NCBI GenBank assembly: GCA_016748015.1
Contig: JAAOMT010000128.1
Coordinates: forward strand, 1,619,538 to 1,683,537
From: Geosiphon pyriformis uo1
Taxonomy: Eukaryota > Fungi > Glomeromycota
Reading direction: 5' to 3'
Length of the DNA stretch: 64,000 nt
Below, piece by piece: positions 19,196 to 64,000 of this stretch. A program made the position numbers and the translations under genes. Below the pieces are notes generated by a model. That model saw only the letters and a program-made list of their open reading frames with translations. It was not told the origin of the DNA and searched no databases. Every line of letters begins with the position of its first letter. The first letter of the stretch is position 1.

Positions 19196-19919
19196 TGTTA
19201 CTTTGATCATGTTTTTCTACAGCTAAGAGACTCATCACTTATATAGCTATTGAAAGTGGTCAATGATTAGGTCAATAACTAAGTCAATAATCAGGTTAAT
19301 AATTAGATCAATAATCAGATCATTGATCAAATTAATAATTAGGTTAATAATCAAGTCAACAGTCAGGTTATTGATTAGATCAATGATTATTATTTAAAAA
19401 TAGGATGGCTAATTATATGATATTAATGGCTAATATATGTGATAACTAATAAAAAATATGGGTTTTAACCATAACAATATTATTATTATATTAATACTAA
19501 TAGCATTTATTATAATTACTTAACAATATTAAAACAATAGCTTTTAATTATAGCTATTAATGAAATACTAATTATTACTTTATTATTTTATTATTGTAAT
19601 TATTTTGAGTTATTAACTAATTATAAAAAAAGTGTTAAAATTATAACGTCAAAGATTGTTTAATAAAAAACACCAGAAAAAAGTATAAACATGATTAAAA
19701 ATTAAAATTACTTATTAAAAAAATGTAAACATTAAAATAAACTAATTACTAAATTAAAAAAATTTCAAATTTATTATTAACTATTAACTATTAAATATCT
19801 GTTTATTATACAAAAAATTTTAATTCAAAATTCTCAAAAACTTTCAAAGTATATTAAATCTAATCTAAGTATTAAGTTATAAACATATTAAAACCTATTT
19901 AAAAAATTTATTCATAATA
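19196..19919 (+). repeat. Probable 5' LTR of element E, with ~12-bp tandem array (GATCAATRATCA-like, ~19258-19390)
   Basis: TGTTAC at 19196; decayed CATAATA end directly before the PBS. No partner LTR in the window to confirm. Confidence 0.45.
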
Positions 19920-22232
19920 TTTGGTGTTTTTTGTAAAGTATAATTTACAAAAAACAAAGTACCAATTAAATAACAATTAGTAAAAATAATAGAATTAAGT
20001 TTTATAAAAAATAATTATCTGAAATTTGTAAAATTATTATATAAACATTTTCAAAAAAATTTAAAATTAAATTCTTATTATTATTTAGTTAAATTTATAT
20101 TGAATTTCTATATTAACAAAAGATTTTAATAAAATATAAGAGAAACAATCAACATAAAAATTACAAAAGCTAATTTTACAAGATTATTAGAAAACACTTT
20201 AATTATTATTAATTATATAACTTTGTAACTATTTTGGCAATCTATAAATATATTAAAAAAAATTTCCATTTATTACAAGAAATTTACAATTTAGTCTAAC
20301 TATATAAACACTAATTATAATATCTAAAAAAATAGTTTTACTATTATAAAAAAAAATCTAAATTGATTTATCAATAGAATTATTATATTATTATATACTT
20401 AGCAATACTATTTAGATTTTATTAAAAACTGTATCTATATCTATATCAAAACTAAAACTTATTTTTCAAAATTATTCTAAAAATAATTATTTATTAGAAA
20501 AATACAAAGAATTTTTGAAAAATTTTAATTACAATTAGCTATATTTATTTTATTATAATTATTATTACCAAAACCCAATTTTTACTATAATTATTATTAA
20601 AAAAAGACGAAATTAGAGAAAAAAAATTAAAAAACAAAAAAAAACATAATTTTAAATTTGATTGTATTTTAAACTTTAGTAATTTAAACTTTAAAAATTA
20701 ATTAAATTTTAATAAATCCAATTATACAAGAAAATTTATTATTAGTACTACCAGTTTATTTAATATATTTACTCTAATTGCCAAGTTAAAAAAATTTACT
20801 AACAAAAAAAATAATATTTAAGTATGATTAAACAATATCAAAAAAGCTATTGTTATTAATAATTGAAATATTATTAGTCTTGTAAGCAATTTTATGTTTT
20901 TTTTAAAATATAATTAAATCTTAATATTAAAGTCTTATTATGAAACTAATATTATTTAATAATTATAAAATTGTGTTTTTACAGAATTTTAGCAATTACA
21001 ATAGTATTATCTGATTATAGTAATAGCAATTAAAAAATCAATATTAAAACTTTGATCCAAAAATCCAAATCCTAAACTATAAATTTAAAATTTAATAAAA
21101 ACAATATTTATTATTAAAATATTATATATTAATATTTCAACAATAACTACAATTATAACTAATATATATATTTTATTTTTAGTTATAATCTATTATTGCT
21201 TATTAACTCTTAAATTGGAAATTAGTATTACAATCATAACACCAAATTCTATTTTCAGCTCAAATTCAAAACTCAAAACCAAAAATTATTTAACAAAACT
21301 AAAAATTAGCAATAATAACATATTAATTAATTTCTAATATTGTCAATTCACAAGTTAAAATTTAAATCCAAAATTTAAAAAATATTCAACTATCTTTTTT
21401 GAATTTCCAGAACTATTTAAGTTTTTTTGCTATAATTAAAACAATTATGTTAACTAATAATTTCCAAAATCACAACATAATTTTATTTATAGCTATTATT
21501 AAAAACAACATACTTACTGTTATCTTTTTATTTAAATTGAAAAAAAAGCTGTTATTTAATAAAGCAGCCCTAAACTCAATATAATTTATTATTATCATAT
21601 ATATAGATATTAAAGTTAATAATCAATCTATTAAGTTTATTTTTATTAGTAGTTTAATAAATAATATTATTATATAATAATTTATAAATCAATTAGATTA
21701 TTAAGTTAATTAAACTATCAATATATGTATTATTACAACTAATAAAATTACAAAAATCTCAATTGGCAAAATTGATAACTTTTTATTTAAAATCAATAAT
21801 ATTATAATATTAATCAAGATTCTTATTATGAAAGCTACATAATATTAAGTTCTTATTATTAATAATTAGTTGTCTAAAACCAATACAATATTTAACTAAA
21901 ACACTTAAAAACTTTAATTAAGCTATTAAAAACACTATATAAAAATATCAACAACATATAAATATTTCAAAACAACTAATAAAACATTACTTATTGAGTT
22001 AAAAAAAGAAGAAAAAAAGCTTATCTTAAAAATATACCAAGTTTTCTAAACTAATAACTTAAAAAAAAAAGCAAAGAAATTATAAGTTACTATATTTACT
22101 TATATATTAATTTACTAAAAAAAACAATACAACTATATTACAAAAACCATATAGCAGTCATAAAAACTCACACTATTATAAACTAAAACTAATTTATATT
22201 AACTATAAGAAAAATTTTTTATTAATAAGTAC

Positions 22233-23172
22233 TGTTATAAGTTAATTTAATAAGATATAATTATAATATTTGGCACTTGTAATTTAAATGCTAAAAACAA
22301 TATAAAGATCAAATAAATTGGTTTTGATTATATTGTAAATTATTAATATCTAAAAAATTTTTTGTTTAAAGTTCTATCTATTAAGTTTTTTTGTTATAAA
22401 ATACAGAAACATTGTTTTTTTAATTAGATTACTATAGTTGTATTTTTTTTGAATTAATAAGTATAAGTATTAGAATCTAGTATTGTTTTTTTGATTTTTT
22501 GATAAGCTAATAAGATAAAATTAATATTTAAATCTAAAAAAAGCTTTTTTTTTATCAGATTATCATAAAATCTATTTTCAAATAATTAATTTTTAATGTT
22601 ATTATTTCATAAAAAAAAATTAGTATTTTATTAATTATTATAATTAAAAATAATTGGTTTAAATTATTAAAATTTTGAAACTATTTATGCTAATAGTATC
22701 TAGTCTAAAACAAAAATAAAAAAACAATTAATTTAATTTTGGCAATTAGAATATTGGAATTAGATACTTGTAAATTGAATAATAAGATTTTATTAAATTG
22801 ATTAAAGAATATATAAAATAAAAATAAAAATAAGATATTAGAAAGAAATTGATTCTTGTTTATTTTATTTTTTTTCTATTTACTAAAACTATTCTTTTTA
22901 TACATATTTTTTAATTTTATAGAATTGCTTTTAATTGCTTATTATTGTTGGTTATTGCTTATTATTTTAGTTATTGCTTTATTTTTTTCCATTATAATTA
23001 GTTATTTTATGTTATTATTAGTTATTTTGTGCTATTTTAAATTATTTTGCATTATTTTAAGTTAATTTGTATTATTTTGTTTTATTTTATGCTATTATAT
23101 TTTTTTTATATTATTATATAATAATTATATTCTTTTAATAATTTCAGATTGGTTTTTTTTATTTAGATAATA
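22233..23172 (-). repeat. 3' LTR of element D
   Basis: Aligns along its length with 61304-62270; adjacent to a minus-strand PPT. Confidence 0.85.
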
Positions 23173-23517
23173 TTATTTTTCTCTTTTAAAATTGAGTTCC
23201 TGTAAAATTATCTGTATTTTTAAAAATTGTTCTTTTAGTAAAATATTCAATTTTTATGTTAAATATTGTTTTTTGTAAGTTTTTAAACTAAAAATTTGTT
23301 ATTTATCCAATATTATTAACTGTAATAATCTTTAATAAATTGTTTAATTATATAATTAAATAGTATTTAAATGTTAAGTATAATTAATATGTTGTCTTAT
23401 AGTATAGTATTAAATTGTTTTTTCCAACAAATTTTTTTACTTGTTTAAAAGCTTTTCTGTAAAATATTTATTTGTTGTTATCTATGTATAATGTTTATAG
23501 ATTTAGTCTTTTGTCAA

Positions 23518-24304
23518 TATTACTTATAGAAAAAAATACATAAAAAAAATAAAAAAACAGATCATAAAATAGACCAATAAGAAAATAATATTTAATAAAT
23601 AAACACATTTTTAGAAAGTAGTATAAAAAAAAGTAAAAATGTGTAAGATTTTGTATAATATAAATTATATATATAGTAAAAGTATTAAAAGCAAAAAAAA
23701 CAGAACAGAAGCTAAAAACAAGTAATTATCTAATACTTTTCTCTTCAAAAGATAGTTTTCCTATAATTTAAAATAGAATTATATTTATATTAATAAAATA
23801 TTCAATTATTATCCAATCTATGTTATTATTACTTGATTAAAAATTTTCATTACTTTCTTATTATTAACAATTTATGTTGATAATATCCAATACTTAACCA
23901 CATTAAACCAATAATTTTTGATTATAGCTATTAATAAAATATTAATTCTTTACTTTTTTTCTTATTTTTATTTTATTTTATTTTTTTTGTTGTTACTAAT
24001 TAATTTAGAAATTAAGTATTAAGTAATTAATATCAAAAATAGTCTGGTAAAAAATCTGTAAAACAAAAGTAGAAAACTTAAAGATAGCTTATCAGAAGGG
24101 CATAACTGTCAAATTAAATTGGCTACTATGCTAAAAACAGAAATTGGGAAGAAACTATTAATTAAATTTTTGTTTATTATACAAAAAACTTAATAAACTC
24201 TTTAGATTACAAAAATCTTTAAAAATTATTATTAGCAATAGCTATTAAGCACCAAGTTATAAGTTTGTTATTTGTTCCAACATTCCAAATAATCATCTAT
24301 AATA
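23518..24304 (+). repeat. 5' LTR of element C
   Basis: TATTACTTAT...TATAATA (decayed TGTTACTCAT...TGTAACA); matches 32427-33192 plus 54185-54237. Confidence 0.85.
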
Positions 24305-24368
24305 TTTGGTATTCTTTATGAGATATAATCTAACAGAAAACCAATACTAGTAACAATTATCTGTAAAA

Positions 24369-27300
24369 GTGGCAAAATCAAAAATAGTAGTAACAAACTA
24401 TTTAAGATTTACTAAATCTTTATTTTAACAATATTAACAACAATTAAGATTAACCAACAACTATTTTCTAGTTAATCAGTTTTCAATTTTTACATTAATA
24501 AGAGAATTATATATTTTCTAGGAAAACAAGCAAATTCTGAATTAGCAAAAGGAAATTTTTACAATAAATTACTTTAATACACTAGTTTACTACTAAATTA
24601 CAATTTTGTTATAATTATTACTAAAATTAATTGTAAAATTAAAAAATATATTCAGCAAAAGTTTCCAATTATATTTACAAACAAAGACAAAACAAAATAC
24701 AAACACCAGCAAACACATCTAAAACAATATAACCACTTAATTAAAAAAAACTCAAAGTTGTTTTCTTAATACATTTATTATACTATTATATATTAAAAAG
24801 TACTATTAATATATTATCAGGATTCATATTATTATCTACAGTAAAATCAACTGTTACAAGAGTTCTATTTTAAAACAATTAAAAGAAATCTAAACTATTA
24901 AAAACCTACAGTAATTATTTTAAAAGATTTAAATTATAACTAACAATTTTATTAGAACTTTAATTATTGCCACTTCAACTTAATTTTAGATTTATTAGTA
25001 ATTAAACAGAAACCAAATCAAAAGAAAAAAAAACAATAATCAAAAAATTAATAATTAAAACCTAATTCCAAATAATTCAAAAGTCTAAATTCTGATTATT
25101 CAAACTCAGCAAAACCTAAAAAATTCAAATTTACTTCTTATTATTTAATAAAACTTATCTTTAGTTATCCAAATTAATTCACTACTAGTTGCACTAATTG
25201 CTGTCTTTTTACAATTATAATAACAACTACTAGTATTAATGACATATATATCAATTGCCAAATTAGAAAACTTCATCAGTAAAAAACAATAACATTCAAG
25301 CCTAATTGAATAATATAGTAAAAGCTATTACAGTCAATAAATAAAACAATATCAAAGCCTTTTAAGCAATTTTTTACTTTTTGTAAAATACCACAAACTC
25401 ATGATATTAAAGCCTAATAAACAAATCACAAGATTTTAACACATTTAAGATTATATTATTACAATATTTTAACAATTACAACAGCATCAACTGTCTGTTA
25501 ATTGGTTTTATTACTATTAAACAAGATGATACTAAAGCAGTTACTACTTACTTGAAATGTTTTTACAGAAATCTGTGCCAAATTTAAGCAATTAATGCTA
25601 ACTACTTTATAATATTACAAATTTTAAATTAATTTATTCATAAATTATACAGCAGTTTGTTATAATAAGTATATCTACTATACCTAAATATATTTCAAGA
25701 TGTAGTCATCTATGCCAAAAATTTCAAATTAGCTAAGCTTGAAGCTAATTATGTCCAAGCTGTAAATCTAGTAATAAATGAATTATTTGAATTAAATATC
25801 AAGTTGAAACAATTTGGCAAAACAATTAATCAGAAAATTGAGAAATACTTAATTAGCAATCAAACAATTTATCAATTTTTTCAATGTTGTGATCATCAAG
25901 AAGTCTTTAATTAATTTTAAAATTAGTTGTATTTATTATCATCAACTTCAGCAACTCAAAAATAATAGCAAAAACATGTATTTACCACTATTGTAATAAA
26001 TAAAAACATTTAAAAATAAACTATAGGACAAAATTAAATAATTAATAATTGAGAAATCAATATTAAAACCCTAATTACAGATTTTAAACTCCAAACTACA
26101 CCAACAATTCATTATTAGAACCATACTAATATTAACTATAATATGTACTAATAATACAACAGCCAATATATATACCTTCAATCTATTAAACTCTAATACT
26201 GGTAATTATTAAGTCTTATAGTTACCAGTTATTTATTAATTTTAATAAATTCAAATACTATTTCAAATTCTAATTCAATTATCAACTAAAAACCAAAGGC
26301 TAAAAGTTATGTATACTTAACAAAATTGGAGATTAACAATAGTTATGTACCAACTGCTATTTAGTTCTTCAAACCAGTCATTAAGATTATGTTAACAAAA
26401 TTTAGAAAATGAATATGCTCAAAATCCGAATTTTAGAACTATTTAAGTCTTCTGGTAATCTTAGAAATCACAATATTCAATTTGCTAAAAACCAATAACT
26501 AATTACTTATTAACAACATTTTATCAGCAACTATTATTAAAGACAAATTATTAGTTGCCATATTTTTCTTTAAGTTAAAAAACTTAATAGACATACTGCT
26601 ATTTAGTAAAATCATTCTTAATACTAAACCAATTACTGCTATATATACTAATATCAAAGTTAATGGTTATTTTATGAAACTCATTCTTAATAGTGGTTTA
26701 GCAGACAGTATTATTATTAGACAATTTATAAACCAATTAAATCATTAAGTTGATCATATTGCCAATACCAGAATTATTACTGTTAATAGAGTAACAAAAA
26801 TTTCTATTGGTAAAATTGTCAACTTTTTATTTGAAGTCAATAGTATTATCATGTCTATCAAAGTTTTAATAATAAAAGTTATATAATATCAAGCTTTTAT
26901 TAGTAATAATTGGCTGTTTAAAACCAATGCTGTATTTAACTGAAATACTCAAGAGTTCTAATTAACATTTGATGATTAGCATAATTAAGTATCTACTATT
27001 TGTAAATACTTTAAAGCTTTTTTAAGAAAGCAATTATTAATTGAGTTGGAAGAAAAAAAAATTACTTAGGAAGTTTACCAAGTTTTATGGGCCAAAAAAA
27101 ACACAATAAGTTATTACTAATACTTACTTGGAATAAAAAAAAAAAGAAAAAAAGGAAAACAAATCTTAAACCACCAACTTTATAAAAAAACCAGCAAATA
27201 ATTAGAGTATCTTATATTCAACATTAATATTAAAAAAACACTTATTCTATATTCTATTCAAGTAAATAAACTGTAAAAAAAAGCTTTCATCTATAAAAAC

Positions 27301-30300
27301 TTGTATATTATCCAAAAAAAATATGAAACATATATCTGTTACTATTGTAAAACATATTACTAGGAACAATTTGGATAACTAAAAAGACAAAACAAATAAA
27401 ACAATAAATTATGTCTCACTTGTAAAGAAACTCTACTTGATAAAAGAATATAGAATAACATTTCTAATTATAAAAGAATATGTAATACATTATATTAATA
27501 CACAATTTTCACTAATAATTAGAAAAGCAAAAAAACATTTTTCAATACTATATAGAATAGAGCTTTTTTATGTTTAGATGGTTATCTACATGATAAAAAT
27601 AAAATCTGGCAAATGGCAAGTGCTAAAATCAAAAATGTTTTACTTAATAAGATATTAGCAATCAAAAACAACCCACCAGAATCTATTAAAACCATTTTTA
27701 TTTCAAATTCAAACATCTTTGTTAACATTATAAATAATCCAAAACAATTCTATAAATATTATCAAAATCTAATATCTACTTAAAAAAAACAAGAGCAGTA
27801 TTTAAAACAATTAAATATTAGACTCTGTAAACATTGTTTAATTTCCAGTGATTTCAAATATTGTGACAATTGTGATTTTATTTACAATTTACTACTGCAC
27901 ATAATTTATTCAATCTCTAAAAAAAAAGAATTAATTAACAGTTATGCTTTAGAATTAGAATTGAAACTTAATTTCAATTAAACTTTAACAATAACAACAG
28001 TAATAATTCTTTCACAATAACAATAACAATAACAATAATTCAAATTTTAATAAAAACTTCAAATAATATATTATGCTTTTAGATCTTTTAATAGAACAAA
28101 AATTTAAATAATTTAATAATAATAACAAAAATATCATATCAGAATACATATATGATACTAATATAAAGTTTAATCTCAAATATTTTGAAAAAACTGCCAT
28201 CAAATTGAAATCTTATTTGTATATTAGCATAAATTTAAAATTAGCACTAAAAATTCTAGCAACAACAATAATACAATTAGCATCCAAATCTAGTTTAGTA
28301 AAAAAAAAGATTAATATTAAAGAAAAAATAATTAATACAGAATATATAAAAAATATTATTACAATACTACAAAATAAATCGAAAAAAGCATATATAATTA
28401 AACCAAATAAAAAAATAGCACAGGCAATATTTTTGCTTTTGGTAAAAATAACTTAATTAATATTAATAAAAATAAAATAAAAATTAGAAATAACAGCAAA
28501 AAAGATAAATAAATTTGGATTTATAAATAAAATAAAGATACCAGTTAATATAATAGAAAAAAAACAATTGGTTAGAAAGAAATTATCTTCATTTATTAAT
28601 CAATTTCTATTTTATTATATAACTAATATATATTAACTATTAAATAAAAAATAAAAAATCAACCTCAAATTTTTGAATAGACTATATTATTTGTAAATCA
28701 AGAAAAATTGCCATTATTAATCTCTATATACTAGCCAAAAACCATAAAAACATTAAAATTTTAATATATAATACAACTGAAAACCCAATAGAAATATCAA
28801 GTAAAACTATTATTAAATACTTAAAAACTAAAATTAAAGATTAATCACCAACAATCATTTCAAATTTTTCACAACTGTGTAGATATATGGACATTATATT
28901 ACAAACTATTTACAAACAAAAAGAATATTATTTGCTGCAACCAAATAATTAGAGCAAATAAATTTAAGAAACTTAGATCTATTCCAATATATACAAATTA
29001 AGCTATTACTTAACAATTTTACTGATATTTTTGTAAATAAAAATAAATTTGACAGAACTAACATTATTTAACACTAGGTTAAAACTAGAATACAATTTTA
29101 ATTAAACAAAAAGCATATTAAATACTACTTACTAACTATAAAATTATTTATTAAAAAATCAATCACATGTTAAACAATGGATTAATTCAACTATTAATAA
29201 GTTTATGATTATTATCAGTAGTATTTATCTAAAAAAAAATGGAAAGATTTGCTTTTATGTAATTATAAAAAACTTAACAGTATTACTTATAAAGACAGCT
29301 ATTTAACTCCACAAATTCAAAAATAGTTTTAACATTAAATTTAAATAGTGATTATTGACAAGTAGTCATAAATTCAGCCAACAAGAAAAAAACAGCATTC
29401 ACTATCAAAAAAAAACTTTGAATTTGATGTTATGCCTTTTGAATTAACCAATGCTCCAGTTACCTTTTGATAATTAATGAAAATTATTTATATTAAATTA
29501 TTATAGAAATCAATAATAATCTACTTAAATAACAAAAATGTGTTCTCCAAAATATTTAACAATTATTTTTACTATCTTTAGCAAGTATTTAAAAGATTAA
29601 AAAAAGCAAAATTAAAGTTAAATACTATTAAGTATTTTTTTGAAAAAACTAAACTCAAGTTTTTAGAACATGTCATAAGTAAAAACAGCATTAAAATAGA
29701 TTTAAATAAAATTAAGATAGTTAAAAACTTTTTAATATTAACCAACTTAATATAACTAAAAACATTCTTGGAATTTATTGGATATTATTACTATTTTATT
29801 TAAAACTTCTCCAAATTGGCTTAATTATTATATTAGTTTTAAGCAAAAAATATCAAGTATGAATAAATTAAAAAACAACAAAAAGCTTTTAATACATTAA
29901 GAAGAAAGTTCATTTAAGCTCTAATTTTAATCTACTTAAATCACAGCAAGTTATTTATTATTACTACTAATATATTAAGTCAAGTATTGAAAGCTGTATT
30001 ATCACAAAAAAAATTAAATAAATAAAAACATTCAATAGCATATGCCAGTCAAAATTTGAGTATAGCTAAAAAAAACTATAAAACTCTAACACTAGAATAT
30101 TTAGCTATTTTTTGGACTGTTATTAAATAAAAAGAATACTTAAGCCAAAAACTTAATATATATATTAACCACAAAAAATTGACATTAATTTAAAAGCAAA
30201 AATTTGGAAATAATTGTTATGCAAGATAGAAAATAAAACTATTATCATTTAATTATAAAGTACATTATAAAAATAAAAATACTAATAACTTATCATAAAT

Positions 30301-32413
30301 AAAACAAATTTAAAAACATTTCAATTCAAAAATATAACAAAAAATAAACACACAAAAATATTAACAACTCCAATATTATATTAATACTCAATAGTTTAAA
30401 AATAAATTATCTCAAAAAAAACAAAACAACATAAAACAGCAATCAAAATATTTTATTACTTATTAAAATATATTATATTAGAAATACAAAAAAATCTAAA
30501 CCAACTACTTAAAGTAATTACAAAACCAAAAAAAGAAAAAATACTGTTTAATATGTATTTAAATCTAACTGCAAAACATTTTTATAAAGAAGCAATCATA
30601 AAAAAAACCAGAAAAAGATACTATTGGCCATCAATATATCCAGATATTATCTAATATGTTCAAAATTATAATGTTTGTTAAAAAAAAAAACAAGATTCAG
30701 TAAACCACTAAAACCAATTAAAATAAGACAACTATTTGATTAGATTGAAATTGACTTAATAAAACCATTAATAATAATTAGCAAAAACAATTAATACATA
30801 ATAATAATTATAGATTATTATACAAAATAGCCAGAAGCTAAAGCCATTTAAAAAGCAAATGCAAAATTTATAACCAAATTCATATACCAGAATTTGATTT
30901 GTTAACATAAATGTTCAAAAAAATTGTTATTAAACCAAAAAACTCATTTTATAATTAAAACATTAACAGAATTAAGTTAAAAATTTGGAATTAAAAAACT
31001 ATTATTATCTTTATATTATTTATAAACAAATAGCTTAGTTAAAAAGTTTAACAGAATATTATACAAAACAATAACCAAGATTAATTAAAAAAACCAGAAT
31101 AAATAATATTTGTTTATACTATTAATATTATTTACTTATTAAACAATAAAGCAAGATATTATATAAGCAATATTATTTTAACTAGTCTATAATAGAATAG
31201 TAATATTATTAATTAAGACAGATATTAATACATACCTAACAGAACCAATAACAAAAGCCAACTTTCAAAAAACATTGCTAAAAAAAACATATAACTTAAT
31301 AAAAACTCTAAAAAACAAAAGATAAAAAGCAGTTAATAATATACAAAAATCACAAAAAAAATAAAAAAACAATATGACAACCAATTATCAAAAAAACCAG
31401 TCAAATTCAAGATTAAAAACAAAATATTTTTACATTGTACCAAAAAAAAAAAACAATAAAGTAAAAAATTTAACTCTAAATGAGACAATTTATTTTATAT
31501 TAAAAAAATTCTAGAAAATAAAATTTATAAATTAAGATAGAACAACAAAATTTTAACTAAAACAATACAAAGTAATTGGCTAAAACCATATTATAATATA
31601 GTATTATTATTCACTAATAATATTCTACAATTGAGAATACAAGAAATACTAGTCAAACCAAATAAAATTTCATAAAATTTGAAACCAATTATAATTATTA
31701 AAGAAAACATAAAAAGTAGATAAAATAAAAGTATATAAAAACACAGTATGTGTGACAAAAACAACAATAAAAAATAAAAATCTCAGACTACATTTATACA
31801 ATAGTACAACAATTGTTTTAAGCCATAAATTAACAACAATTAGACATAAAAATTATTATCAATTACTAAACAATTTGTTATAAAAACACAAAAAAAGAAA
31901 GAAAAACAAAAATTACTCTATATTAACAATTATAAAACCAAATAAAGTATTGATTAGATAAGATTATAAAAAAAGTAAAGAATACTTTTAGAAAAATACC
32001 AATTATTATTCTAACAGAAGAACTAACTAAAAAAAAAACTGAAAACTATGAACAAAATAACTTTCAATAGAATACTATTACTATTAATTGAGACAAAAGC
32101 TGAATATTTAGGAATTGTATATTAACAAATCCAAAAAATGTTTAATCAAAAAATAATACAATAGATTAAAGACTTTATTAAAAAAAAACAAGTTCAATAC
32201 TATATATTAAAACAATTTATTAGCCATCTATTATATTTCAAGATTATTTAAAAATACTATTATATTTAAAAATAGAAACAATAATTATTAACCAATAAGA
32301 AAAAATAACTAACTTTTAATTTAAAAACATAAGAACCAAAATTGACAAATAGTATTAGAAAAAGAAGTAATAAACTTAATTTAAAATAAAAATTTTAATA
32401 GAACTTAATGATA
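24369..32413 (+). pseudogene. Element C coding remnants: Gag-PR-Cys-rich-dUTPase-RT-RNH (to 30313), integrase (~30343-31720), accessory ORF (~31780-32413)
   Basis: Colinear with element B throughout (e.g. dUTPase ORF 28205-28456 IQLASKSSL...KKIAQAIF); very many stops from transitions. Confidence 0.8.
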
Positions 32414-32426
32414 AAAAAAGAGATAA

Positions 32427-33192
32427 TATTACTTATAAAAAAAAGTACATAAAAAAAATAGAAAAAACAGATTATAAAATAAACCAATAAAAAAATAATA
32501 CTCAATAAATAAACATATTTTTAGAAAATTATAATACATTTTTAAAAATAAGCACATTTTTAAAAAATAATATAAAAAAAAATAAAAATATGTAAAGTCC
32601 TATATAACATGAATTATGTATATATAGTAAAAATATTAAAAGCAGAAAAGACAAAACAGAAGCTAAAAACAAATAATTATCTTATACTTTTCTTTTTAAA
32701 AGATAGTTTTTCTATAACTTGAAATGGAATTATATTTATATAAATAAAATATTCAATTATTATTTAATTTATATTATTATTGCTTGATTAAAAATTTTTA
32801 TTACTTTTTTATTATTAACAATTTATGTTGATAGCATCTGATATTTAATTATATTGGACTAATAATTCTTGATTATAACTATTAATAGAATACTAATTTT
32901 TTACTTTTTTTTTATTTTTTTTATTTTGTTGTTATTAATTAATTTAGGAATTAAGCATTGAATAATTGATATCAAGAATAGCCTAATAAAAAACTCATAG
33001 AACAAGAGTAGAAAACTTAAAAATAGTTTATTAGAAAAACATAACTGTCAGATTAAACTAGCTATTATATTAAAAACATAAATTGGGAAAAAATCATCAA
33101 TTAAATTTCGGTTTATTATACAAAAAACTTAACAAAACTCTTTAAATTACAAAAACTTTTAGAAATTATTATTAGCAACAGTTATTAAGCAC
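32427..33192 (+). repeat. 3' LTR of element C, left part (the last 53 bp lie at 54185-54237)
   Basis: Follows PPT AAAAAAAGAGA-TAA; matches the 5' LTR up to TTAAGCAC and resumes after element B. Confidence 0.88.
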
Positions 33193-34052: not shown

Positions 34053-34064
34053 TTTGGTGCTCCC
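34053..34064 (+). promoter_or_regulatory. Primer-binding site of element B
   Basis: TT-TGGTGCTCCC immediately after the LTR; TGG complements the tRNA CCA end. Confidence 0.8.
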
Positions 34065-35403: not shown

Positions 35404-35435
35404 CATGGAAATAACACAGCAACAACAAATTCAAA

Positions 35436-51200: not shown

Positions 51201-51245
51201 ATGAGACAAATCTAAAAACACTTCAAACCCAAAAATATAAAAAAA

Positions 51246-52617: not shown

Positions 52618-52671
52618 ACAACCAAAAAGTATATAAAGACACAGTACACATGACAAAAGCAACCAAGAAAA

Positions 52672-53307
52672 ATGGAAATACCAGATCATATTCACACTAT
52701 AGTTCAACAATTGTTTCAGGCCTTAAGTAAACAACAGTTAGACATGGAAATTGTTATTAACAACCAAATAATTTGCTATCGAAACACCCAAAGAAAGACA
52801 AAAAATACACTATATCAGTGGCCACCAAAGAATGATAAAAACTGGACAAATAACTTAATAGAAAAAGTAAAGAACACTTTTGGGAAAATACCTATTATAG
52901 CACCAACAGAAGAGCTTACAAAAAAAAATTGGAAGCAATGAACAGAACAACTTCCAATATCATATTGCTACTACCAGTTAGGTCAAAAGTTGAATATTTA
53001 AGAGTTGTATATTGACAAATCTAAGAGAATATTCAACTAAGACATAATACAGCAAATTGAAAAATTTATTAGAAAAAAAATGAATTTAACACTAGATGTT
53101 AAAACAATGTACCAACTACACAACATATTTTGAAACTATTCAGAAATACTGTTACACTTTGACATGAAAACCATAATCATTAACCAATAGAGAAAAATGA
53201 ATAATACACAAGTTGAAAACATGAGAAACAGAGTCAAACAAACAATACTTGAAAAAAAAGTACTAAAATTAATTTAATATGAAGATTTCAATAGAGCTCA
53301 ATATTAA
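52672..53307 (+). pseudogene. Element B 3' accessory ORF (ORF-X), unknown function
   Basis: ATG at 52672 (MEIPDHIHTIVQQLFQAL). One frame with transition-type stops to EDFNRAQY-TAA, overlapping the PPT. Confidence 0.75.
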
Positions 53308-53320
53308 AAAGAGGAGATAA

Positions 53321-54180
53321 TGTTACTCATAAAAAAGAAAACAGATATAGAAAAATAGTAGGCCAATAAGAAAGTAGTAGTTAGCACATGAGCACATTGC
53401 TCAGTAATGTGGAGCAATGTCAAAAATCATGGCACATTGCTTAGCAATATGAAACAATATCAAGAAAATATGGCACATTGCTCAGCAATATGAGCATTGC
53501 TTGAGAAATTATAGCATATTGCTCGAGAATGTAAATAATCTCATAGAACCCAAATTATGTATATATAATGGTAGCATTAGAAGTAGAAAAGACAGACCTT
53601 CCAGTTTAGATTTAATCTAAGCAACTTTTTCATTCACAAATATTAATAAATAATTATTCACTATTTTAATCCACTTTCCACTATTAACACTTCATGTTAA
53701 TAGCAATTGATACTTAACCATACTGGAACAATAGTTCTTGATCATGGCTATTGATAGAATACTAACTTGCAATTGCATTGGCTCATTTCTTCATTTTTTA
53801 TTTTTTTTATTTCTTTTCTTTGATTTTATTGTTGTGTACTAAATTGATTAAGAGGATTAAAGTACTGAGTTATTGACGTCATGGATAGCCTGATAAAAGA
53901 CCCAGAAATAAGAGTAGAATTATATATATTAATGGATAGCTTACCAGAAGAGCACGACTGCCAGATTAAACTGGCCACTACACTGAAGACAGAAATTGGG
54001 AAAACAACTTGAGAAAAACAACTTAAACCAACCATAGTAAACCTCTGTCCATTATACAAAGAACTCAGCAACAAACCTTCAGATCCACCAAATCTTCAGA
54101 TATCAACACTAGAATACCAAACCAGCACCAAGTTACAAATTTTTTATTTGACTTGAGACCCCAAATAATCATCTGTAACA
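53321..54180 (+). repeat. 3' LTR of element B
   Basis: Direct repeat of 33193-34052, followed by TSD GCAC. Confidence 0.95.
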
Positions 54181-54184
54181 GCAC

Positions 54185-54237
54185 TAAATTATGAGTTTAT
54201 TATTTGTTCTAACACCCTAAATAATTTATTTATAACA
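54185..54237 (+). repeat. Right remnant of the element C 3' LTR
   Basis: Matches 24253-24304; ends TATAACA. Confidence 0.85.
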
Positions 54238-57200
54238 CTAATTTTAAAAAACCAGTATGTTAATAAAAGGTTTTTTTATATTTTAGAGGTTTTGGAAATT
54301 TATTTTCCAATATTTAATTTTATAGTTAAGTTGTATAATTTTTTTTGATTTTTTTTATTGTTTGAAAACATATATATATTTTTTTCTGATTTTTTATAAA
54401 ACTAGAAATATTTAATTCTAATTAAACTTTTATTTATTTATTTTTTGCTTGTATTTTTGTATTATATCTTTTTTTTATCAATTGTGATTTCTATTAGTGT
54501 TGTGAATTATTGTAAAAGTTTTAAAATTTTGTTTAAAAGATTTATACTAAAAATGTTTTGATCTTTTTTTCTTATTCTTTTGGTATTTATATATATATAA
54601 TTTGTGTAATTTAATTTTTTGTAATTGGATTGTGTTTTACAATAACAATTAATTTTAAATCTTGTAAAATATCTTCAGATTTAATTAATAATATTTTTTG
54701 TATTATATAATAAAATTTTAAACAATTTTTATGTATGATTTTTTTTAAAATTCTGTTTTTTAATTATAGTTTGTAAGCTTTATTGCCAAAAACTTTATGT
54801 ATGTAAAATGGTCTGTTCTATTTTGAGTCAAATTTTTCATTTTACAGTTTTTTAACTTTAATACAATATAATAATATTTGATCTTCAATTTTAAATTCAA
54901 TTAATTGGTCTAACAGGTAATTATTATGTCTTTTTTTTGTTATTTTTAAGAATTATTAATATTATTAGCTGTTGTTTTATGATTGTTTTTTAGTATTTCT
55001 ATGAGCTAATATGTTTTTTAATATAAAATAACTGCAAAGTTTTCTTTAGTAATTGTTTTTATTAAAAAAAAAATATTTTTAATTTAATAAGCAGTATGGT
55101 TCTTTTATAAACTAGTTTAAATAGTGTAAATTAGATAGTATTTTGCTTTAATATTTAATATGCAAATAATATTAAGAGTATAAATAAGTCTTATTCTTAT
55201 ATATTTTTGTAACTTATTTTTATTAAAGCTTTATATAATATTTGGTTAAATTATTCTACTAATCTGTTTGTTTAAGGATAATATAAGAATAACAAAGATT
55301 ATTTTATTTTAAATTATTGGCTTAGTTTTATTAAAGTACTATTAACAAAATAAGTTTTTTAATCAGATAATAATTTTTTTAAGTATTTATATTAACAGAT
55401 CAAAATTTGGTATATAAATTTAGCTATTATTTTAATATCTATAACTTGAATAGCTCGAGTTTTTGGCCATTTAAAATAGTCTATAGCTATTATAATATAT
55501 TGGTTTTTTTAAAAATAATTGAAAAAAATCCAATCAAATTAATTTTAATTCTATTAAATAAATTTTCAATTAAAATAAATTAAAATAGTTTTGTTATTCT
55601 GGCTCTTTTTTTTTAACAGAAGTTATAGTTGTGAACATATTTAAAAATATTTTTAATATAAATTTATTGTTTTTTCTAAGATAGCATTTTTATTAAAGTG
55701 TTTAGTAATTGAATTAGAATTTATGTTAAATAAAATTGTTTCTTTTTCTATATCTTTTATGACTTTTTGTAATGTATTGTAGTTTTAGTATTCTTATTAA
55801 TATAATTATTTATTGTAAATAAAATAGTTTTAAGCTTGTTTTTATATAATACTTTGTTTTTGTTGAGATAATTTCTTTTTAAACTAAAGTATTAACAGAT
55901 ATTAATATAATTTTTGGTATATAAGTGTGTCTATTTAGCAAGATTAAACCTGTGTTATTTTTAATAAACTGTTAGCATTGGTATTTTTAGCTTTTTTTTT
56001 TTAATATATTTTATAGAAAAATTATTAGAAGTAAATATTCTATTTTACATATCTTTTTTTAAGTTGTGGTTTGCTAAAAAATCAGACTAATTCTTTATAA
56101 TTTATATGTAAATTAAATAGTTTGTAAAGATAATATTTCCAATATTATATGGTTCAGTAAATAATAAAGTATTCTAAGTCTATAGTACTGTATATTTTTT
56201 CAGCTGTATTAGTGTTTTTGCTAATACAAACAATTAAATATTTTTTATTATCAAACTTAATTTGAAATGAAACTGCTTTAAAAGTATTCTTTAATATATT
56301 AGTAACTACAATAAATTATTTATTAAAATCTAGATATATTAAGATTAAAACTTTAATTAATTAATGCTTAAAGTAATTAAAAATCTTCTATTGTTCAGTT
56401 TTTTATATATATGATATATGTTTTAAGAGCAAATAATAGAAAAGTTTAATAATATTTGAAAATTTTTTAATAAAATAACAGTTATTTTTGACAAGTCTTA
56501 AAAATTTTTAAGTTTACAAAGATTAGTTGAGACCAGAAATTTTTTACCTTTTTTAACTTTGTTTAAATCAAATTTTACTTTATTTTTTCTAAAAATATGT
56601 TTAAGAAATTTTAGTTTAGTTTTTCTAAAAAAATATTTGTTAAGATTAAGTTTTAGTTTAATATTACAAAAACAATTAAAAATTTGTTAAAGATAAAACA
56701 GATAATTATCAAAGATCTTTAAAAAAATATTGGTATTATTTAAATAGATAATAATTGATTTTTACAGAATTTTTTGTACATAATATTTATTAAGTATTAA
56801 AAAGTAGCAGAAGTATTGTAAAGTCCAAAAAGCATTATATTAAACTTAAAGTTTTCATTTTGAATATTAAAAACAGTTTTTTTTTTCATTTGAATTCATT
56901 TTGATTTGTCAATATTTGCTGGCTAAATCTAATAAAAAAAACTATTTTTTATTTTCTAAATTGTTTAAAATTTCTTAAATAAAAAAAATTAAATAACTAT
57001 CTTCTTAAATATATTATTAAGTTTTTAATAGTCAACATAAAAACATATTTTCTTGTTTTTTTGGGTAATTAAGATAACAAATAAAAATTAGAAGCTTAAT
57101 AATTTTTTGATTAAGCCATTATTTAACATTTATTGTATTTTTTGTTTGATTAAATTGTCTTTATTTAGGATAATCTTATAAGTTTATTATTTAATTGGCC

Positions 57201-60200
57201 TGGTATTTTTATTATGTATTGTCAATATAATAGGATTAAAATAACAGTGGTTATATTGATAAGTTTTATTTTGTTACTGGTTTTTTTTTATATAATTAAT
57301 TTATATATATTTTTTTTTATTAAATTCAAATTTTTGGATTTTTTTAGCAATAAGACTTAGTTTTTTTCGCATAATTACTAAGATCAGTTGTAAAATTTTT
57401 ACAAAAAGTAAAAAAATTGTTTAAGCAATTTTTTTTGTGATTTAATTATATAGAGCTTGTTAGAATTGTTTTAAAGCATTATAATAATATTTTTAATATA
57501 TTCAATATTAATTATTTCTTCTTTGACATTAATTTTTTTATTTGTAAAGCTAAAATAAGATATAATTTATATTATTATGCTAATAAAAATTTTTAAAGCT
57601 AATTTAAAATCTATTTTTATAAAAGAATAGACAACTATAATTATAAAGAATTATTCAAAGTATCTTAAATTAAATTTTATATTATTTGCATGTACTCTTT
57701 CAGAAAATATTTTTTTATTATTATTATTGTATTATTTTAATTTTAACTTTTTAAAAAAATTGAGATAAATAAAGTATTGTTTAATTTTAATAATCATATT
57801 TAGTTCTTAAAATATAATGTTTTTTGTATTTAATAAGTATTTTTCTTTGGGTTTTTCAAGTTCAGAAATAAAATAAAGTACTTATAAAAATAAATTAAAC
57901 AAAAACTTATATTTATTATAATATTAAAAATGACAAAAAATTAAACAGTGATTATATAATTTGGTGTTAAGATTAGCCAATTTTTGTTTTTGTTTTTTTT
58001 AAGTAGAAACAAGTTCTTAATAATATTTTTAAAACATTTTAAGATTATTAATAAACAGGTTATCTATCTTTTTAACTATTATTAAGATATTTTTAATAAT
58101 ATATATCTCTTTAATAATAACTTTTTTTATTTTATTGTAGCTATTTTCTAAATTTTGTTTTTATTATAAAGATATAAATCTAATTGCTTAATTATAGGTA
58201 ACAACAAATAGAGTTCTTTTTTAAGTCTAATTGGTAATTAAAATTGTGTATTAATATAATTTATTACATGTTTTTTCTCTATCAAGAATATTGTTTTATA
58301 GTTTTTTATTTAATAGAATCTTATTATAGATAAAACATAATATATTATTCTATTTAGTTTTGTTATATTAAGTGTTCAAATTATTTTAATATATAAGAAC
58401 AACAATAATATCTGAGAATAGTCAATTATATTTTATTATCTTTAATATATGTACTTATTGATAATAATTTTTTTTACAATCTATACAAATTAATTTTAGA
58501 AGATAATATAGTTAATTATATTGGTTTTATAAAACATAAGCAAAGATTAAAGCTTGTAATATTTTTTTGGCTTTTTTTTATATAAGAAGTAAGAGTAATT
58601 TTGTTTTAAATTCATTAATTCAAGAAATTTGGTATGTTTTTAAGATTAGTTAAATTATAAACTTTTTAAATTTGATAAAAGATAGTTTAAATATTGTTAA
58701 TTTAAAATGTCTACAAGTGACAGATATTCGAATATATTGATTATTAAATAAAATTTAAAGCTCTTGAATATTCTAATTAAGAATAATATAAGTCTTAGTT
58801 AATTAATTATTATTAATTAAAGTTTGGTATTAAGTTACTTTTATTACAAAAACTTTGATTAAAATTATGATTCCATTTAATTTAAAAAAAAATTGTTAAT
58901 TTTTCTTATTTGTATTTTGATATTTTTATTAACTATAATAATTTTAACTATAGTTATATAATTAATTTACAATCTAATTAATTCACAAACTGTTTTATGA
59001 TTATATTACCAGTTAAGTTGTTATTAAATATTAGTTTAATATTTATTTGTTCTATTGTGATATTAGTATATATTGTTATAATTGGTTTGTTTTAATTGAT
59101 AACAGCTTTACTAAAAAAATTAAAAGTATTTATGTTGTTAATTTTGAATAAAAATATGACTACAAACATTTTATTTTTATTGATTATAACTGGAAAAATT
59201 ATATTAAAAAAGACTTAGTTATTGTTAATACAAAAAAAATTGGTAATTTTAATTGTAGTTTTTTTTTTTAAAAAATACAATATTATTAAAATTCTGGGTT
59301 TCAATAAAATTAAGATATAATACTTGGTTTAGATATTCAATTGGTGGTGTTTATAATAATAAGTTGTTGTAATTTATGTTTCAAATTAGTATTATTGGGT
59401 TTTAAAATTGGTTTTTGAGATTATTTCTTTATTTTTGGCTATAATTAATAGTTTTAAGTTTTAAATTAATGTTTTAAGAGATTTAATATTGAGATTAAAG
59501 TAGTATTATTGTTTGAAAAAATTGGTAATAGTTTAGTAATAACTACAATATATATTGAAATTGCTAATATTAAAAAATAGAATAATAATATTCTAATAAT
59601 TGTAAATATTTTAATTATTATTAATATTAATTTTTATGATTTTAGTATGTTATTTTTTTGCAACAATTTTTTATAATATAACTAAATTTCTAATAATAAT
59701 AATTATAGAAATCTTGTATCCAAAGTTATTGTTGTTGTTAATATTATTGTTGTTATTAGTATTTTGTATTATTGTTATTTTCTTAATATTATAAAAACTA
59801 ATATATTTTTAAATTTTTTACAAAGAATTTTTCAATTTTTTAAAGTAATTCTTACTTAATTAAGTAAGTTTTATGTCAATATTAGAAGTTTTATTTATGG
59901 CCAAATTAACAGCTTGGGTGTAATTTGCTTTTTGTTTAGCAGATTTAAAGTTATAAACAAACATTATTGTATTTTGTAAACTTTTAAAATAGTAAGATCT
60001 AATAAACCAAAAAATATTGCTTTTAAATTTTTTTATAAATTGGTTTAAAATTTGGTTAAATGTATAATAATTTTTTTTAATGATAAAAAATTTGATTAAA
60101 TTAATTAAGATAAGTAATAACTGCTTTATAATTTTTTTGTTTTATAATATTAAATTGATTTTATAGTTGAATTATGATATTAAAATCACAAAAATACTAT

Positions 60201-61303
60201 AAAAAAACAAATTTAAAAATAGCAAAGTCAGTTAGTTTTTCATTAAAACTTTGATATTATAAGTTTGTAATTTTAATCAAAAAAAAGTAAAACTTGAATT
60301 GTTCTGATCTTGTTTTAATTATTGGCTATAATTGTTTTTTTAGCTTTAATAATTTAAGTGTAGACATTTTTTTTTTAAGAATTTTTTTAATCTAGCAATG
60401 TTTTTGTAAGCCATAATAAAAGTAATAAAAAGTTGTTTGTTTACTAACAAAAAAAAAATTGGTAAAAATAATTTGGGTTTTTTTGTTAAATTTAATATTA
60501 ATTGTTTTTTTTTGTTTATAGTTATAATTAATTGAAAAAGTACTGTTTTTTTAAAGAAAGTAATTATTAATTCTGTTAATAATTATAATAGTTGTTGTTT
60601 TTAAGTAATAGTATTCTAGAAAGAATTGTTTATTATTAGAATAAGATTTTTAAATAATGTTTTGTATTTTTTCAATAATTTAATTTAGAAATTTCTGTTA
60701 AAATCTTAAAAATAAAAATTTCTAAAAATTTTTGGAGTTTTTGGCTAAGATCTGATAAGTTGATTAAATAAAATTCTACTTTTTGAAGTCTAATAATATG
60801 AAAGTATTGTTAGTAATAAAAGTCTTGATTTTTTTTTAATAGTAGATTGCAGTTTTTTTGTTTAAATTGTTATTAGATATTATTTTCTGTGTTTAATTTG
60901 GATTTTTTCAAAAAATTTAATATTGTAATTTTTTTTAAGTTGTAAATAACAGTTTTGCATATATATCTCGATTTTTTTGTTAATAAAAAGAAGAGTTTTT
61001 ATAATTGCTCTTTTGGTGATTAAAATTAAATATGATAATAAATTCTAGTAAATCTGTTTTTTAAGTTTTTTAGTATCTGCTGTTTTGTCTAAATAATAGT
61101 CAATTTTAAAATGTAAATAATAAAAAAAATTACTTTTAGCTATAAATGTTTTTTTTATATTTTTTAAATTTTTTTAAAAGTATTGATATAATGCTCTTCT
61201 AAAAAACAAGTAGTCTTTTCTAATTGTTTTAATAGTTGCTATTTTGTAAGTTTTTTGAATGTTTTGTTTCTGAAAATTTTATAATCTTATAAGAAGCAAC
61301 AAA

Positions 61304-62270
61304 TATTATAGATTAATTTGATAAAATATAATCTTAATATTTGGCATTTATGATTTAAATACTAAAAGCAGTATAAAAATTAAATAAATTGGTTTTGGTT
61401 ATATTGTAAATTATTAGTTTTAAAAGTTTTTTTGTTTAAAGTTTTACCTATTAAGTTTTTTTGTTATAAAGCACAAAAATATTGTTTTTTCAATTAGATT
61501 GCTATAATTGTATTTTTTTTAGAGCTAATAAGCACAATTACTAAAGTCTGATATTATTTTTTGTTTTTTTAATAAGTAAACAAAATAAAGTTAATATTTT
61601 AACCTAAAAAAAACTTTTTTTTTTATCAAACTATTATGAAGTTTATTCTTAAACAATTAATTTTCAATGTTGTTACTTCACAAAAAAAATAAATAAATAA
61701 TTAGTATCTTATTGATTATTATAATCAAAAGCAATTAGTCTAAATCATTAAAGTTTTAAAAGTATTTATATTAATAGAATCTGGTTTAAAACAAAGATAA
61801 AAAAAACAATTAATTTAATTTAATAATTAAAATATTGAAATTAAGTACTTGTAAATTAAATAATAAGATTTTATTAAATTAATCAAAAAATATATAAAAT
61901 AAAATTTTATTAAACTAAAGTTAAGATAGTAAAAAAAAATTAATTTTTGTTTGTTTTGTTCTTTTTCTATCTGCTAAAATTATTTTTTTTATACATATTT
62001 TCTAGTTTTATAGAATTGCTTTAATTGTTTGTTATTACTAATTACTATTTACTATTTTAGCTATTGCTTTGTTTTTTTATTATAAGTAATTATTCTATAT
62101 TATTACTAATTATTTTGTGCTATTTTGTGTTATTGTGTATTATCTTGTATTATTCTGAATTATTTTGTATTATTTTGTATTATTTTATGTTATCACATTT
62201 TTTTTATGTTATTATGTAGTAATTATATTTTTTTAATAATTTTAAATTATTTTTTTTTATTTAGATAACA
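61304..62270 (-). repeat. 5' LTR of element D
   Basis: Direct repeat of 22233-23172; adjacent decayed minus-strand PBS (TTTGTTGCTTC). Confidence 0.85.
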
Positions 62271-63525
62271 ATATTTATTATAATAGCAATAAAAAATATC
62301 TAATAACAACCAAGTATTATTGTTGTTCATGTATTTTAAAATAATTTAACTACTCAAAAAGACAAAAAAAATGAGATAACAAATTATGTTTAATCTGTAA
62401 AAAAACTTTTTCTAACAAAAAAATATAAAAAAATAGTTTAAAAAAAGAAAAAACATGTAATAAATCATATTAATACATAATTTTTATACATAAATGAATA
62501 AAAAAATGCTATTAAAAGCTATATATAATCATGTTTTTATTTGTTTAAATAGTTGTTTATATAACAAAAATAAAATCTAAAGAATAGTAATTACTAAATA
62601 TAATAGTATCATTAAAAAAAAATACATGTAATTAAAAACATGCATAAAAAAAATTATTTTTTGTAATATTTAACAATCTAACAAAATTAAATAAGTATTA
62701 CCAATTACTAATATTTACTTAAAAAAAACAAAAACAAGATTTAATACAGGGAACTAATAGTCTTACTTGTCAAGAAAAACTTATTAATCTTAATATTTAA
62801 TTATGTAAATACTATTTTATTTTATATTAATTCAAATATTGTAATAAATATAATCTTATTTATAATTCACTATCACATATTATCTATTTTATTTTAAAGC
62901 TTAACAAACCAATTACCAAAGCCAATAAATTAGAATTAGAGTTTAATTTTAATTCAAATATTACTTTTAAATTTAACATAAATTTTAATATTGTTTCTAA
63001 AACTAAATAATATATTGTCTTTAATTTAATAAAAATAGAAGAATTAAAATAGTTTAGCAAAGATAATAAAGATATTATGTCTAAAAAAGCACATAAAACA
63101 AATATTAAATTTAATTTTAAATATTTAAAACAAGTTTTTATAGTTTTAAAACTTTACTTACTTATTAATATAGATTTAAAATTAGCATTAAAAGTTTTGA
63201 CAACTATTATAGTTTAATTTGCATTCAGATCTAGCTTAATTAAAAAATAAATTACTGTAAAAAAAGAAATAGTTAATACCAAATATATAAGAAATATTGT
63301 TATTATGCTACAAAATAAAGCTAAAAAAATAGCACAAAATATATATTTGTCTTTAATTAAAATATTTAAATTAGTATTAATAAGAATGAAAAAAAATCAA
63401 AAATAACTGCTAAAGAAATTAAAAGATTTAAATCAATAAAAAAATCAATATATTTGTTAACATAACAAAAAAAATTATAGATCAAAGAAAAATTATTTTT
63501 ACAAGTTATATTGTTTTTATTCTGT

Positions 63526-64000
63526 TGTTATTAACTTGTAGTTTGATGAAATATATTTTCAATTTGTAAAAATATTAGAAAAAAAAGAGTATTAAATCAT
63601 AATATAATATTATAACAAATTATATAAAAAAAAGTTTTTTTTTTAAAAAAATATATTTTGATTCAAAATTTTTCTATTAGATATTAATTAAAACTATTTT
63701 CTATATAAATCAATTTTAATAAAACTTAATTTGAAAAACATAAAAATCTTTAATTATTTTTGTTTCGAAATTAACCATTTTATTAATATTTTGAAATTAA
63801 TTAATTACCAATTTTAGTAATCATTAATAACTTTCAGATTTAAATCTTAAATAACTTTATTAACACATTTTTTTAGTTTATTATTATTTTTTCTTTTATT
63901 TTTTTTTATATTATTAAATAGTTTACAGTTAAGATTTCTTGTAAAAGAGTTGACTTTTATAGCAAAGTAATTACACATATTTTTAAAAAGCTTATAGACA
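63526..64000 (+). mobile_element. Decayed LTR-A-related sequence interrupting element E; runs off the window
   Basis: AACTTGTAGTTTG..., the TATAAAA region and GAGTTGACTTTTATAGCAAAGTAA match LTR-A blocks. It starts at TGTTA but lacks about 290 bp of the LTR-A 5' part. Confidence 0.6.

Follow-up and report, generated by a model that had tools for sequence, protein, structure and literature searches.

Nested long terminal repeat (LTR) retrotransposons were reportedly described in maize by SanMiguel in 1996. Clusters of LTR elements lying inside older ones, each with its own duplication, are described for plants (PMC6911290; papers given by identifier are cited here for parts of their text), and in Mycosphaerella graminicola such nests comprise 2-7 elements, span 7.5-63 kb and have a lowered GC content (PMC4522978). 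In the present study, we analyzed a window of 64,000 nucleotides (the whole stretch of DNA; forward strand of contig JAAOMT010000128.1, assembly GCA_016748015.1, positions 1,619,538 to 1,683,537) from Geosiphon pyriformis uo1 (Glomeromycota), a genome of which LTR elements make up 41.2% (PMC11952901). Positions 19196-64000 of the window are occupied by related LTR retrotransposons inserted one into another, called E, D, C, B, A and A' from the outermost to the innermost layer. Compared with the known nests, this one has five successive levels in one line, is built by a single lineage, lies in a member of Glomeromycota, and has layers dated by a graded decay that is not repeat-induced point mutation (RIP). 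The nesting itself is a known phenomenon; the architecture of the elements and the graded decay in all sequence contexts are what set this example apart.

In the usual Ty3/gypsy layout, the integrase (INT) is the last domain of the pol polyprotein (PMC3248453). Fungal Ty3/gypsy elements with a dUTPase (PosPlaTy3-5, the Phanerochaete elements and Tuber Tmt1) carry it between protease (PR) and reverse transcriptase (RT), in the order PR-RT-RNase H (RH)-INT (PMC2864245). Elements A-D are dUTPase-bearing Ty3/gypsy elements with the same order (gag, PR, RT, RH, INT, with the dUTPase between PR and RT). They differ from the fungal elements above in the absence of a chromodomain, 4-bp duplications, a long gag extension, a stop codon between RNase H and a separate start of the integrase, and a third open reading frame (ORF). 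An integrase as the last pol domain was found neither in A-D nor in most of their nearest relatives, and we file the elements as a Ty3/gypsy-like variant.

Anatomy of the nest

Self-BLAST gave four LTR pairs nested like brackets and one inverted solo LTR, and the exact ends were taken from print-outs of the junctions. This agrees with the six-layer nest proposed in an earlier sequence-only reading of the window. The elements, with two solo LTRs outside the nest, are as follows.

19196..19919, plus strand: 5' LTR of E; starts with TGTTAC, has a 12-bp tandem array near its start and is followed by TTTGGTG, resembling a primer-binding site (PBS); aligns to the LTRs of C and B above shuffles
19920..22232, plus strand: gag and protease of E, up to the insertion site of D; left duplication GTAC at 22229-22232
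22233..62270, minus strand: D; LTRs at ~22233-23172 and 61304-62270; gag, PR, dUTPase, RT, RH and INT; duplication GTAC/ATAT
23518..54237, plus strand: C; 5' LTR 23518-24304, 3' LTR 32427-33192 and 54185-54237; duplication TCAA/CTAA
33193..54180, plus strand: B; LTRs 33193-34052 and 53321-54180; duplication GCAC/GCAC
34399..45252, plus strand: A; LTRs 34399-35390 and 44261-45252; duplication ACAC/ACGC
41076..42055, minus strand: A', a solo LTR in inverted orientation from a different A-family subfamily, placed after the RNase H stop and before the integrase start of A; duplication CCAA/CCAA
62275..63500, plus strand: E resumes (PR-dUTPase linker and dUTPase), aligns to B up to ~63500, then breaks off
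63532..64000, plus strand: Z, decayed and 5'-truncated A-family LTR fragment, GC 0.13; the match starts at LTR position 288
14568..15564, plus strand: X, A-family solo LTR outside the main nest, in the RT of a long interspersed element (LINE); duplication CTGT/CCAT, ancestral CCGT inferred
10151..10958, minus strand: Y, solo LTR outside the main nest, in the first ORF of the LINE; like the LTR of D (z 5.8); duplication CTAA/CTAA

All seven inserts with both ends in the window have a 4-bp duplication, and the five nested ones are as had been claimed. Counting X and Y as the sixth and seventh target sites, all seven mismatched positions in the seven pairs are transitions. By hand arithmetic, seven duplications matching in purine and pyrimidine would arise by chance with a probability of ~(1/16)^7. 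Gag, protease, dUTPase, RT, RNase H and integrase were identified in A-D, and a gag-like region, protease and dUTPase in E (Pfam, tblastn). The elements have direct LTRs with TG...CA termini, which in C and D are partly decayed by transitions, together with PBS-like and polypurine sites. The PBS-like motif TTTGGTGCTC directly follows the 5' LTRs at 35391, 34053, 24305 and 19920 and is decayed in C and E. Short tandem arrays were observed in the LTRs of E (19258-19389, 12-bp unit) and B (33263-33396 and 53386-53524, 41-bp unit); the array region of E looks less decayed than the rest of that element.

Each insertion site could be placed within its host element. D lies in E in a Cys-rich insert with several CxxC motifs between protease and dUTPase, found in A at 37900-38500, which matches parts of B-E. 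C lies downstream of the integrase of D, in a region matching the third ORF; B lies ~50 bp from the end of the 3' LTR of C, and A in the N-terminal extension of the gag of B. A' is likely to have arisen from a full element by LTR-LTR recombination. The count of six elements made earlier holds for the nested layers, which are real; however, E has neither a 3' LTR nor a testable duplication in the window, and a seventh element, Z, had been overlooked. Counting Z, the elements number at least seven, and at E the structure is either branched or truncated; the A family matches the outer layers in age. Z lacks the first 288 LTR bases and abuts the dUTPase of E, as would result from an insertion plus a deletion, or from a different start in its subfamily.

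Removal of each insert in silico left a host that aligned over the junction to a paralogue in the window at all five sites, which bears out the colinear resumption described earlier. The B site aligned to the 5' LTR of C with 0 gap columns within 30 of the junction. The A site aligned to C with 0 gaps, and the gag frame of B reads through. The D site showed 0 gaps against B and 1 against C, and the C site was colinear within 1 nt with one copy of the duplication kept. At the A' site the alignment also crossed the junction, but with a 19-column gap caused by differences in the spacer among families.

Public contigs were compared at the left-hand junctions. One contig of run X1 bridges the C/B junction (33193) with 251 and 46 letters on either side, 0 differences and a depth of 82; no bridging contig was found for the other left-hand junctions among the X1 pieces listed. 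Other long X1 pieces have depths of 52-78, and two X1 joints skip A' (41072 to 42058 and 41075 to 42069), representing A-family copies with an empty site. Run X1 is possibly the assembly's own sample, and runs X2 and X3 cover almost nothing of the stretch. That similar repeats were joined into a chimera during assembly would be favored by a wholly repetitive region in which no listed contig spans the nest and the one bridged junction depends on a run of this possible origin. Nevertheless, we consider a chimera extremely unlikely, given the purine/pyrimidine-matching duplications at five of five nested inserts, the matched LTR pairs whose ages follow depth, the similar GC on both sides of each layer, the restored reading frames, and the unique-looking contigs (depth 52-82) over C and D.

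A probable separate integrase reading frame

In all four elements A-D, a stop codon separates RNase H from the integrase, and a further decayed ORF follows in A:

35391..41045, plus strand: A, a single frame from gag through PR, dUTPase and RT to RNase H, without frameshift and with 21 stop codons, the last of them TAG at 41043-41045
42079..43464, plus strand: A, integrase as a separate ORF with its own ATG; H2C2, rve and SH3-like domains
43573..44260, plus strand: A, decayed third ORF before the polypurine tract; no Pfam match for the C-terminal 137 aa
51213..51248, plus strand: B, RNase H stop, 30-nt spacer and integrase start (now ATA); same layout in C at 30311-30346
55946-55932, minus strand: D, RNase H stop, 9-nt spacer and integrase start; same layout as in B and C

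The RNase H stop lies four codons past an LSR-equivalent motif in 4/4 elements, and the integrase start, ATG or ATA, follows after 49, 30, 30 and 9 nt in A-D, respectively. The probability that a Gln codon decayed independently in each of the four elements is ~0.002, calculated by hand as a product from the decay rates. The same arrangement is seen in relatives, for which both searches (120 homologues each) were length-filtered. Of the RT-RH relatives with a scorable motif, 95/104 end within 21 aa of it; by alignment, 106/120 are short, their ends lying no more than 25 aa from that of RNase H; a further 8 are long, and 3 each are fused or truncated. Among the integrase relatives, 119/120 are stand-alone proteins of 390-453 aa and 117/120 begin with M, most at the homologous position. 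Named relatives in both lists are mostly from Rhizophagus, with one Dentiscutata, one Geosiphon and one 'Bacillus' label of a metagenome-assembled genome. Five pairs of RT-RH and stand-alone integrase share the size of the longest contig (5404, 6570, 7024, 3738 and 15698), which by eye suggests that both ORFs are on one contig. At the DNA locus L039, a stop is followed by a 139-nt spacer and an out-of-frame ATG. To judge from these sequences, the integrase is very probably encoded as a separate ORF, and the lineage would likely make it from this ORF behind the RNase H stop, with restart, read-through and a separate RNA as candidate routes.

Several observations weigh against a separate integrase. 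In an unfiltered search, 29/38 hand-picked single-stretch matches (of 150 listed) were fused, in an output dominated by multi-RT chimeric gene models. At the DNA level, 51 of 86 loci were fused, 1 was split, 3 were of other layout, 1 was without integrase and 30 were uninformative; these loci were found via the decayed RT of A in metagenome (6, distant), viral (2) and genome (78) scans. The 78 genome contigs (L009-L086) are prokaryote-labelled and carry eukaryotic gypsy RT genes, probably by binning contamination. In a FastTree phylogeny of 162 RT-RH sequences, built without named clade references and with the decayed copies on long branches, 32/32 fused proteins fall, together with 8 short and 13 long ones, in a single group (53 members, support 0.94), which excludes the elements of the window; these and 101 short RT-RH sequences lie outside it. 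Finally, the spacers of B, C and D (30, 30 and 9 nt) are in frame, and another A-family copy has 48 nt where A has 49. With spacers mostly in frame, the stop might formally be read through or have come from a decayed Gln codon. An overlapping ATGAATAA start/stop between the RNase H and integrase ORFs was absent in the elements of the window. No publication on a separate integrase ORF was found for Glomeromycota among the papers listed in our searches; mentions of a 'separate ORF' in two papers concern other genes.

A third ORF of ~190-230 aa lies between integrase and 3' LTR; B has it at the same place (52672-53320), and that of C is like that of B by eye. Ginger1 and the YPYY-type gypsy integrases (PMC2836005) share with our elements, by their description and by eye, a stand-alone gypsy-type integrase of ~420-460 aa, an N-terminal extension before H2C2, a 4-bp duplication and TGTNR termini. 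In contrast to Ginger1, which are transposons with terminal inverted repeats, the elements here have direct LTRs, gag and RT. Troyka, which has CG...CG termini and a 3-bp duplication (PMC12440569), was rejected on account of the TG...CA termini and 4-bp duplications found here. Membership in the chromoviruses was likewise rejected, since the integrase C-terminus has no chromodomain match; at E<=0.1, no Chromo match was found in the integrase of A or in its intact relative P0243.

Order of the layers and loss of cytosines

The LTR pairs were compared with columns near gaps excluded. For each pair we give transitions/transversions, the differing fraction for non-CpG C-to-T changes with its lambda per copy, transversions per site per copy, and the GC content of the homologous protease block.

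A: 65/0 (992 columns); 40/278, lambda 0.081; transversions 0; GC 0.41
B: 83/2 (860 columns); 64/281, lambda 0.138; transversions 0.0012; GC 0.39
C: 92/6 (694 columns); 87/155, lambda 0.495; transversions 0.0043; GC 0.21
D: 124/16 (872 columns); 121/177, lambda 0.733; transversions 0.0092; GC 0.14
E: protease block GC 0.14

The non-CpG C-to-T fractions differ between successive pairs (Fisher p 0.012, 4e-12 and 0.023). Transversions, which had been suggested as the sole basis for dating, rise monotonically with depth, although no single step is significant (p 0.13-0.22). The order D before C before B before A is supported twice, by structure and by LTR ages. The strict order proposed earlier, E<D<C<B<A<A', goes further at both ends. 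For E before D the argument is structural only, because GC is saturated near 0.15 in both. For A before A' there is a loophole, because A' sits in a non-coding spacer and could have travelled in the RNA of A. The 17-19 transversions between A' and the LTRs of A show that A' came from another subfamily. The terminal portion of a 3' LTR would not be carried in element RNA. Since B lies in this part of C, B came after C. Z, a second element that lies next to or within E, means that the nest is not strictly serial.

Decay is almost confined to one class of change. In the LTR pair of A, which has no indels, 60/65 differences polarised with X and A' as outgroups are G/C to A/T; the other five comprise 4 ambiguous or reverse changes and 1 that is unclear. 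Non-CpG C-to-T changes per C exceed transversions per site by ~118 (B), 114 (C) and 80 (D) times, with lower 95% bounds of 33-53 over all four pairs. CpG decays 6-8 times faster than non-CpG in A and B. Among dinucleotide contexts, CpA decay is about equal to CpT decay in all four LTR pairs, with CpG the highest; given the similar rate at CpT, the non-CpG decay is not accounted for by hidden CpGs. No deficit of strand runs was observed in 4/4 LTR copies (p 0.19-0.80; 27-47 events each), where several rounds would blur tracts. The excess of C:G to T:A is confined to repeats, the neighbouring host genes being spared, and the CpG observed/expected ratio is 0.80-0.86 over host genes and 0-0.38 over the elements. 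Judging from these spectra, cumulative deamination of methylcytosine at CpG and non-CpG likely drives the decay: the layers would lose cytosines by C-to-T on both strands through steady deamination of methylated DNA. Both classes of cytosine may be methylated by a DNMT1-like together with a DIM-2-like activity. A DIM-2 homologue methylating all CpN is described for Phycomyces (PMC13297926).

A ratio of C-to-T to transversions near 100 is far above ordinary mutation spectra, which counts against passive decay. An alternative, unlikely in our opinion, is an active repeat-directed cytosine mutator, RIP-like yet lacking the context bias of RID. The exclusively transitional differences of the LTR pair of A (65, with no transversion or indel), the 80-120-fold excess over the transversion rate and the sparing of adjoining host genes speak for it. 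With RIP (Neurospora RID/DIM-2) the nest shares the nearly pure C:G to T:A change in repeats and the fall of GC to ~14%. Strand-coordinated tracts are a feature of RIP, and no such runs, no CpA preference and the strongest effect at CpG are seen here; the ratio to transversions is roughly constant over ages, as of a clock rather than of episodes, and the host is outside Dikarya. Classical, Neurospora-type RIP was rejected for the want of CpA bias; a TpCpG form is described for Pucciniomycotina (PMC3318451). Further against a mutator, RID is confined to Ascomycota in the table of PMC13297926, and RIP signatures are given as absent in Gigaspora margarita and Mucoromycotina in the part of 10.1101/2021.03.30.436303 cited here. 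No publication on such decay in Geosiphon or Glomeromycota was found among titles and the starts of abstracts; the genome paper of the species, outside this scope, may bear on it.

Target sites, surroundings and implications

Our best explanation of the whole combines serial insertion into tolerated transposable element (TE) space, methylcytosine decay and a separate integrase ORF, and we regard the combination as reasonably probable. The six related elements likely entered tolerated transposon DNA one after another, with no chromatin targeting, and selection against genic insertions may account for survival in TE space. All seven target sites (7/7) have a pyrimidine-purine (YR) centre, for which the chance is 3.5e-5, as expected of short-stagger integrases (PMC4422553). 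Local target choice may occur via the bendable YR step, as in retroviral integrases with a 4-bp stagger. In a simulation, 5300 elements of 10 kb each (41% of a genome that we take to be ~129 Mb) were inserted uniformly; the mean of 20 runs was 0.2, 2.2, 17 and 75 elements at layer >=6 for 60, 40, 20 and 10 Mb of tolerated space, a quantity that was guessed. In this model, chromatin targeting appears unnecessary for the depth of the nest. Two points tell against insertion without any steering, namely that at 60 Mb, with an assumed genome size and a guessed tolerated space, only 0.2 sixth-layer elements are obtained, and that a strictly serial path of five insertions is ~0.9% probable under length-proportional insertion, in a window chosen after the fact and with Z as a branch. 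Some funnelling toward young layers is possible.

The sequence-only reading had suggested preferential insertion into, or tolerance within, TE chromatin. Tolerance is sufficient in the simulation, whereas preference is not shown, as no chromodomain was matched and one nest cannot test it. For active targeting to silenced TE chromatin, its stronger form, it may be said that all seven duplication-bearing insertions are in other TEs and none in 8 kb of host genes, that at other places in the genome contig joints show more LTR ends next to TE sequence, and that a mild non-random nesting is described in plants (PMC6911290). However, selection against genic insertions would look the same, uniform insertion attains this depth with an integrase that has no chromodomain match, and the Mycosphaerella graminicola nests are given as without obvious preference in the part of PMC4522978 cited; we consider targeting improbable. 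Funnelling, which we also doubt, to a lesser degree, would follow if the integrase prefers C/G-containing YR targets, like the CCGG/CCGT of Ginger1, that C-to-T decay erased from old layers. In A and B there are ~160 C-containing YR steps per kb, against ~68 in D and E, and CpG drops from 10 to 0.4 per kb. At present a TA centre is seen in no more than 2/7 sites, those of Y and D, and decay could explain both; the share of TA among YR steps is 28-33% for A, B and the LINE and 63-70% for C and D. The small number of TA centres, the 0.9% serial path and the 4-bp CCGG/CCGT duplications of Ginger1 (PMC2836005) argue for funnelling. Of the seven duplications, one reconstructs to CCGT, three (CCAA, CCAA and CTAA) are derivable by transitions from CCGG (the Ginger1 duplication being CCGG or CCGT/ACGG), and three are RYRY. 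Against funnelling, there are seven sites only, of which just X matches the Ginger1 site exactly, and reconstruction is biased toward G/C because two copies are pooled. Moreover, by a hand estimate the serial probability is raised only about threefold, C was already partly decayed when B inserted, and Z shows branching. It is also rather improbable that Geosiphon combines a transposon-directed, RID-independent, all-context cytosine mutator with an undescribed gypsy lineage whose free-standing Ginger1-like integrase steers new copies to the youngest layer.

Outside the nest, the LINE at 9800-18270 has ORF1, an endonuclease-like start, RT, an RNase H-like end and an A-rich tail; it is depleted of CpG with a GC of still 0.35. 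With the solo LTRs X and Y (the latter containing a run of 20 N) it forms a second, shallower nest, and removal of X or Y in silico leaves the LINE frames open over the junction. Host genes occupy 1-8300 (AAA ATPase, BAR-PH-ArfGAP and Tho1/MOS11-like), have normal CpG and end ~550 bases before a decayed stretch at 8850. The BAR-PH-ArfGAP gene (2779-6026) has an exon that matches a Geosiphon pyriformis protein at 100% identity, followed by other Glomeromycota at 58-75%. The stretch at 8850-9800 (GC 0.16), directly adjoining the host genes, is probably another fully decayed element; its alignments to most LTRs did not clearly exceed those of shuffles. The AT-rich stretch at 18270-19195, which separates the LINE tail from E, starts like a B/C-type LTR; a further outer layer there was dropped as unproven (block-shuffle z 0.2 against the LTRs of C, 2.0-2.8 against those of B).

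The value of the nest is that it provides an ordered time series of layers. In this fungus LTR identity measures cytosine decay and not neutral time, so that ages from the usual LTR dating would come out many-fold too high, and a transversion clock may be needed for the TE 'age landscapes' published for Archaeosporales. How integrase enters the particle becomes a question when it is not part of the pol polyprotein, and a separate gypsy integrase bears on the relation of Ginger-type DNA transposons to gypsy integrases. A repeat-restricted C-to-T process is quantified in Glomeromycota, where RIP has been reported absent, and is testable with one methylome. If an all-context mutator were true, it would be the glomeromycotan counterpart of RIP, and the nest would be a natural time series of its action.

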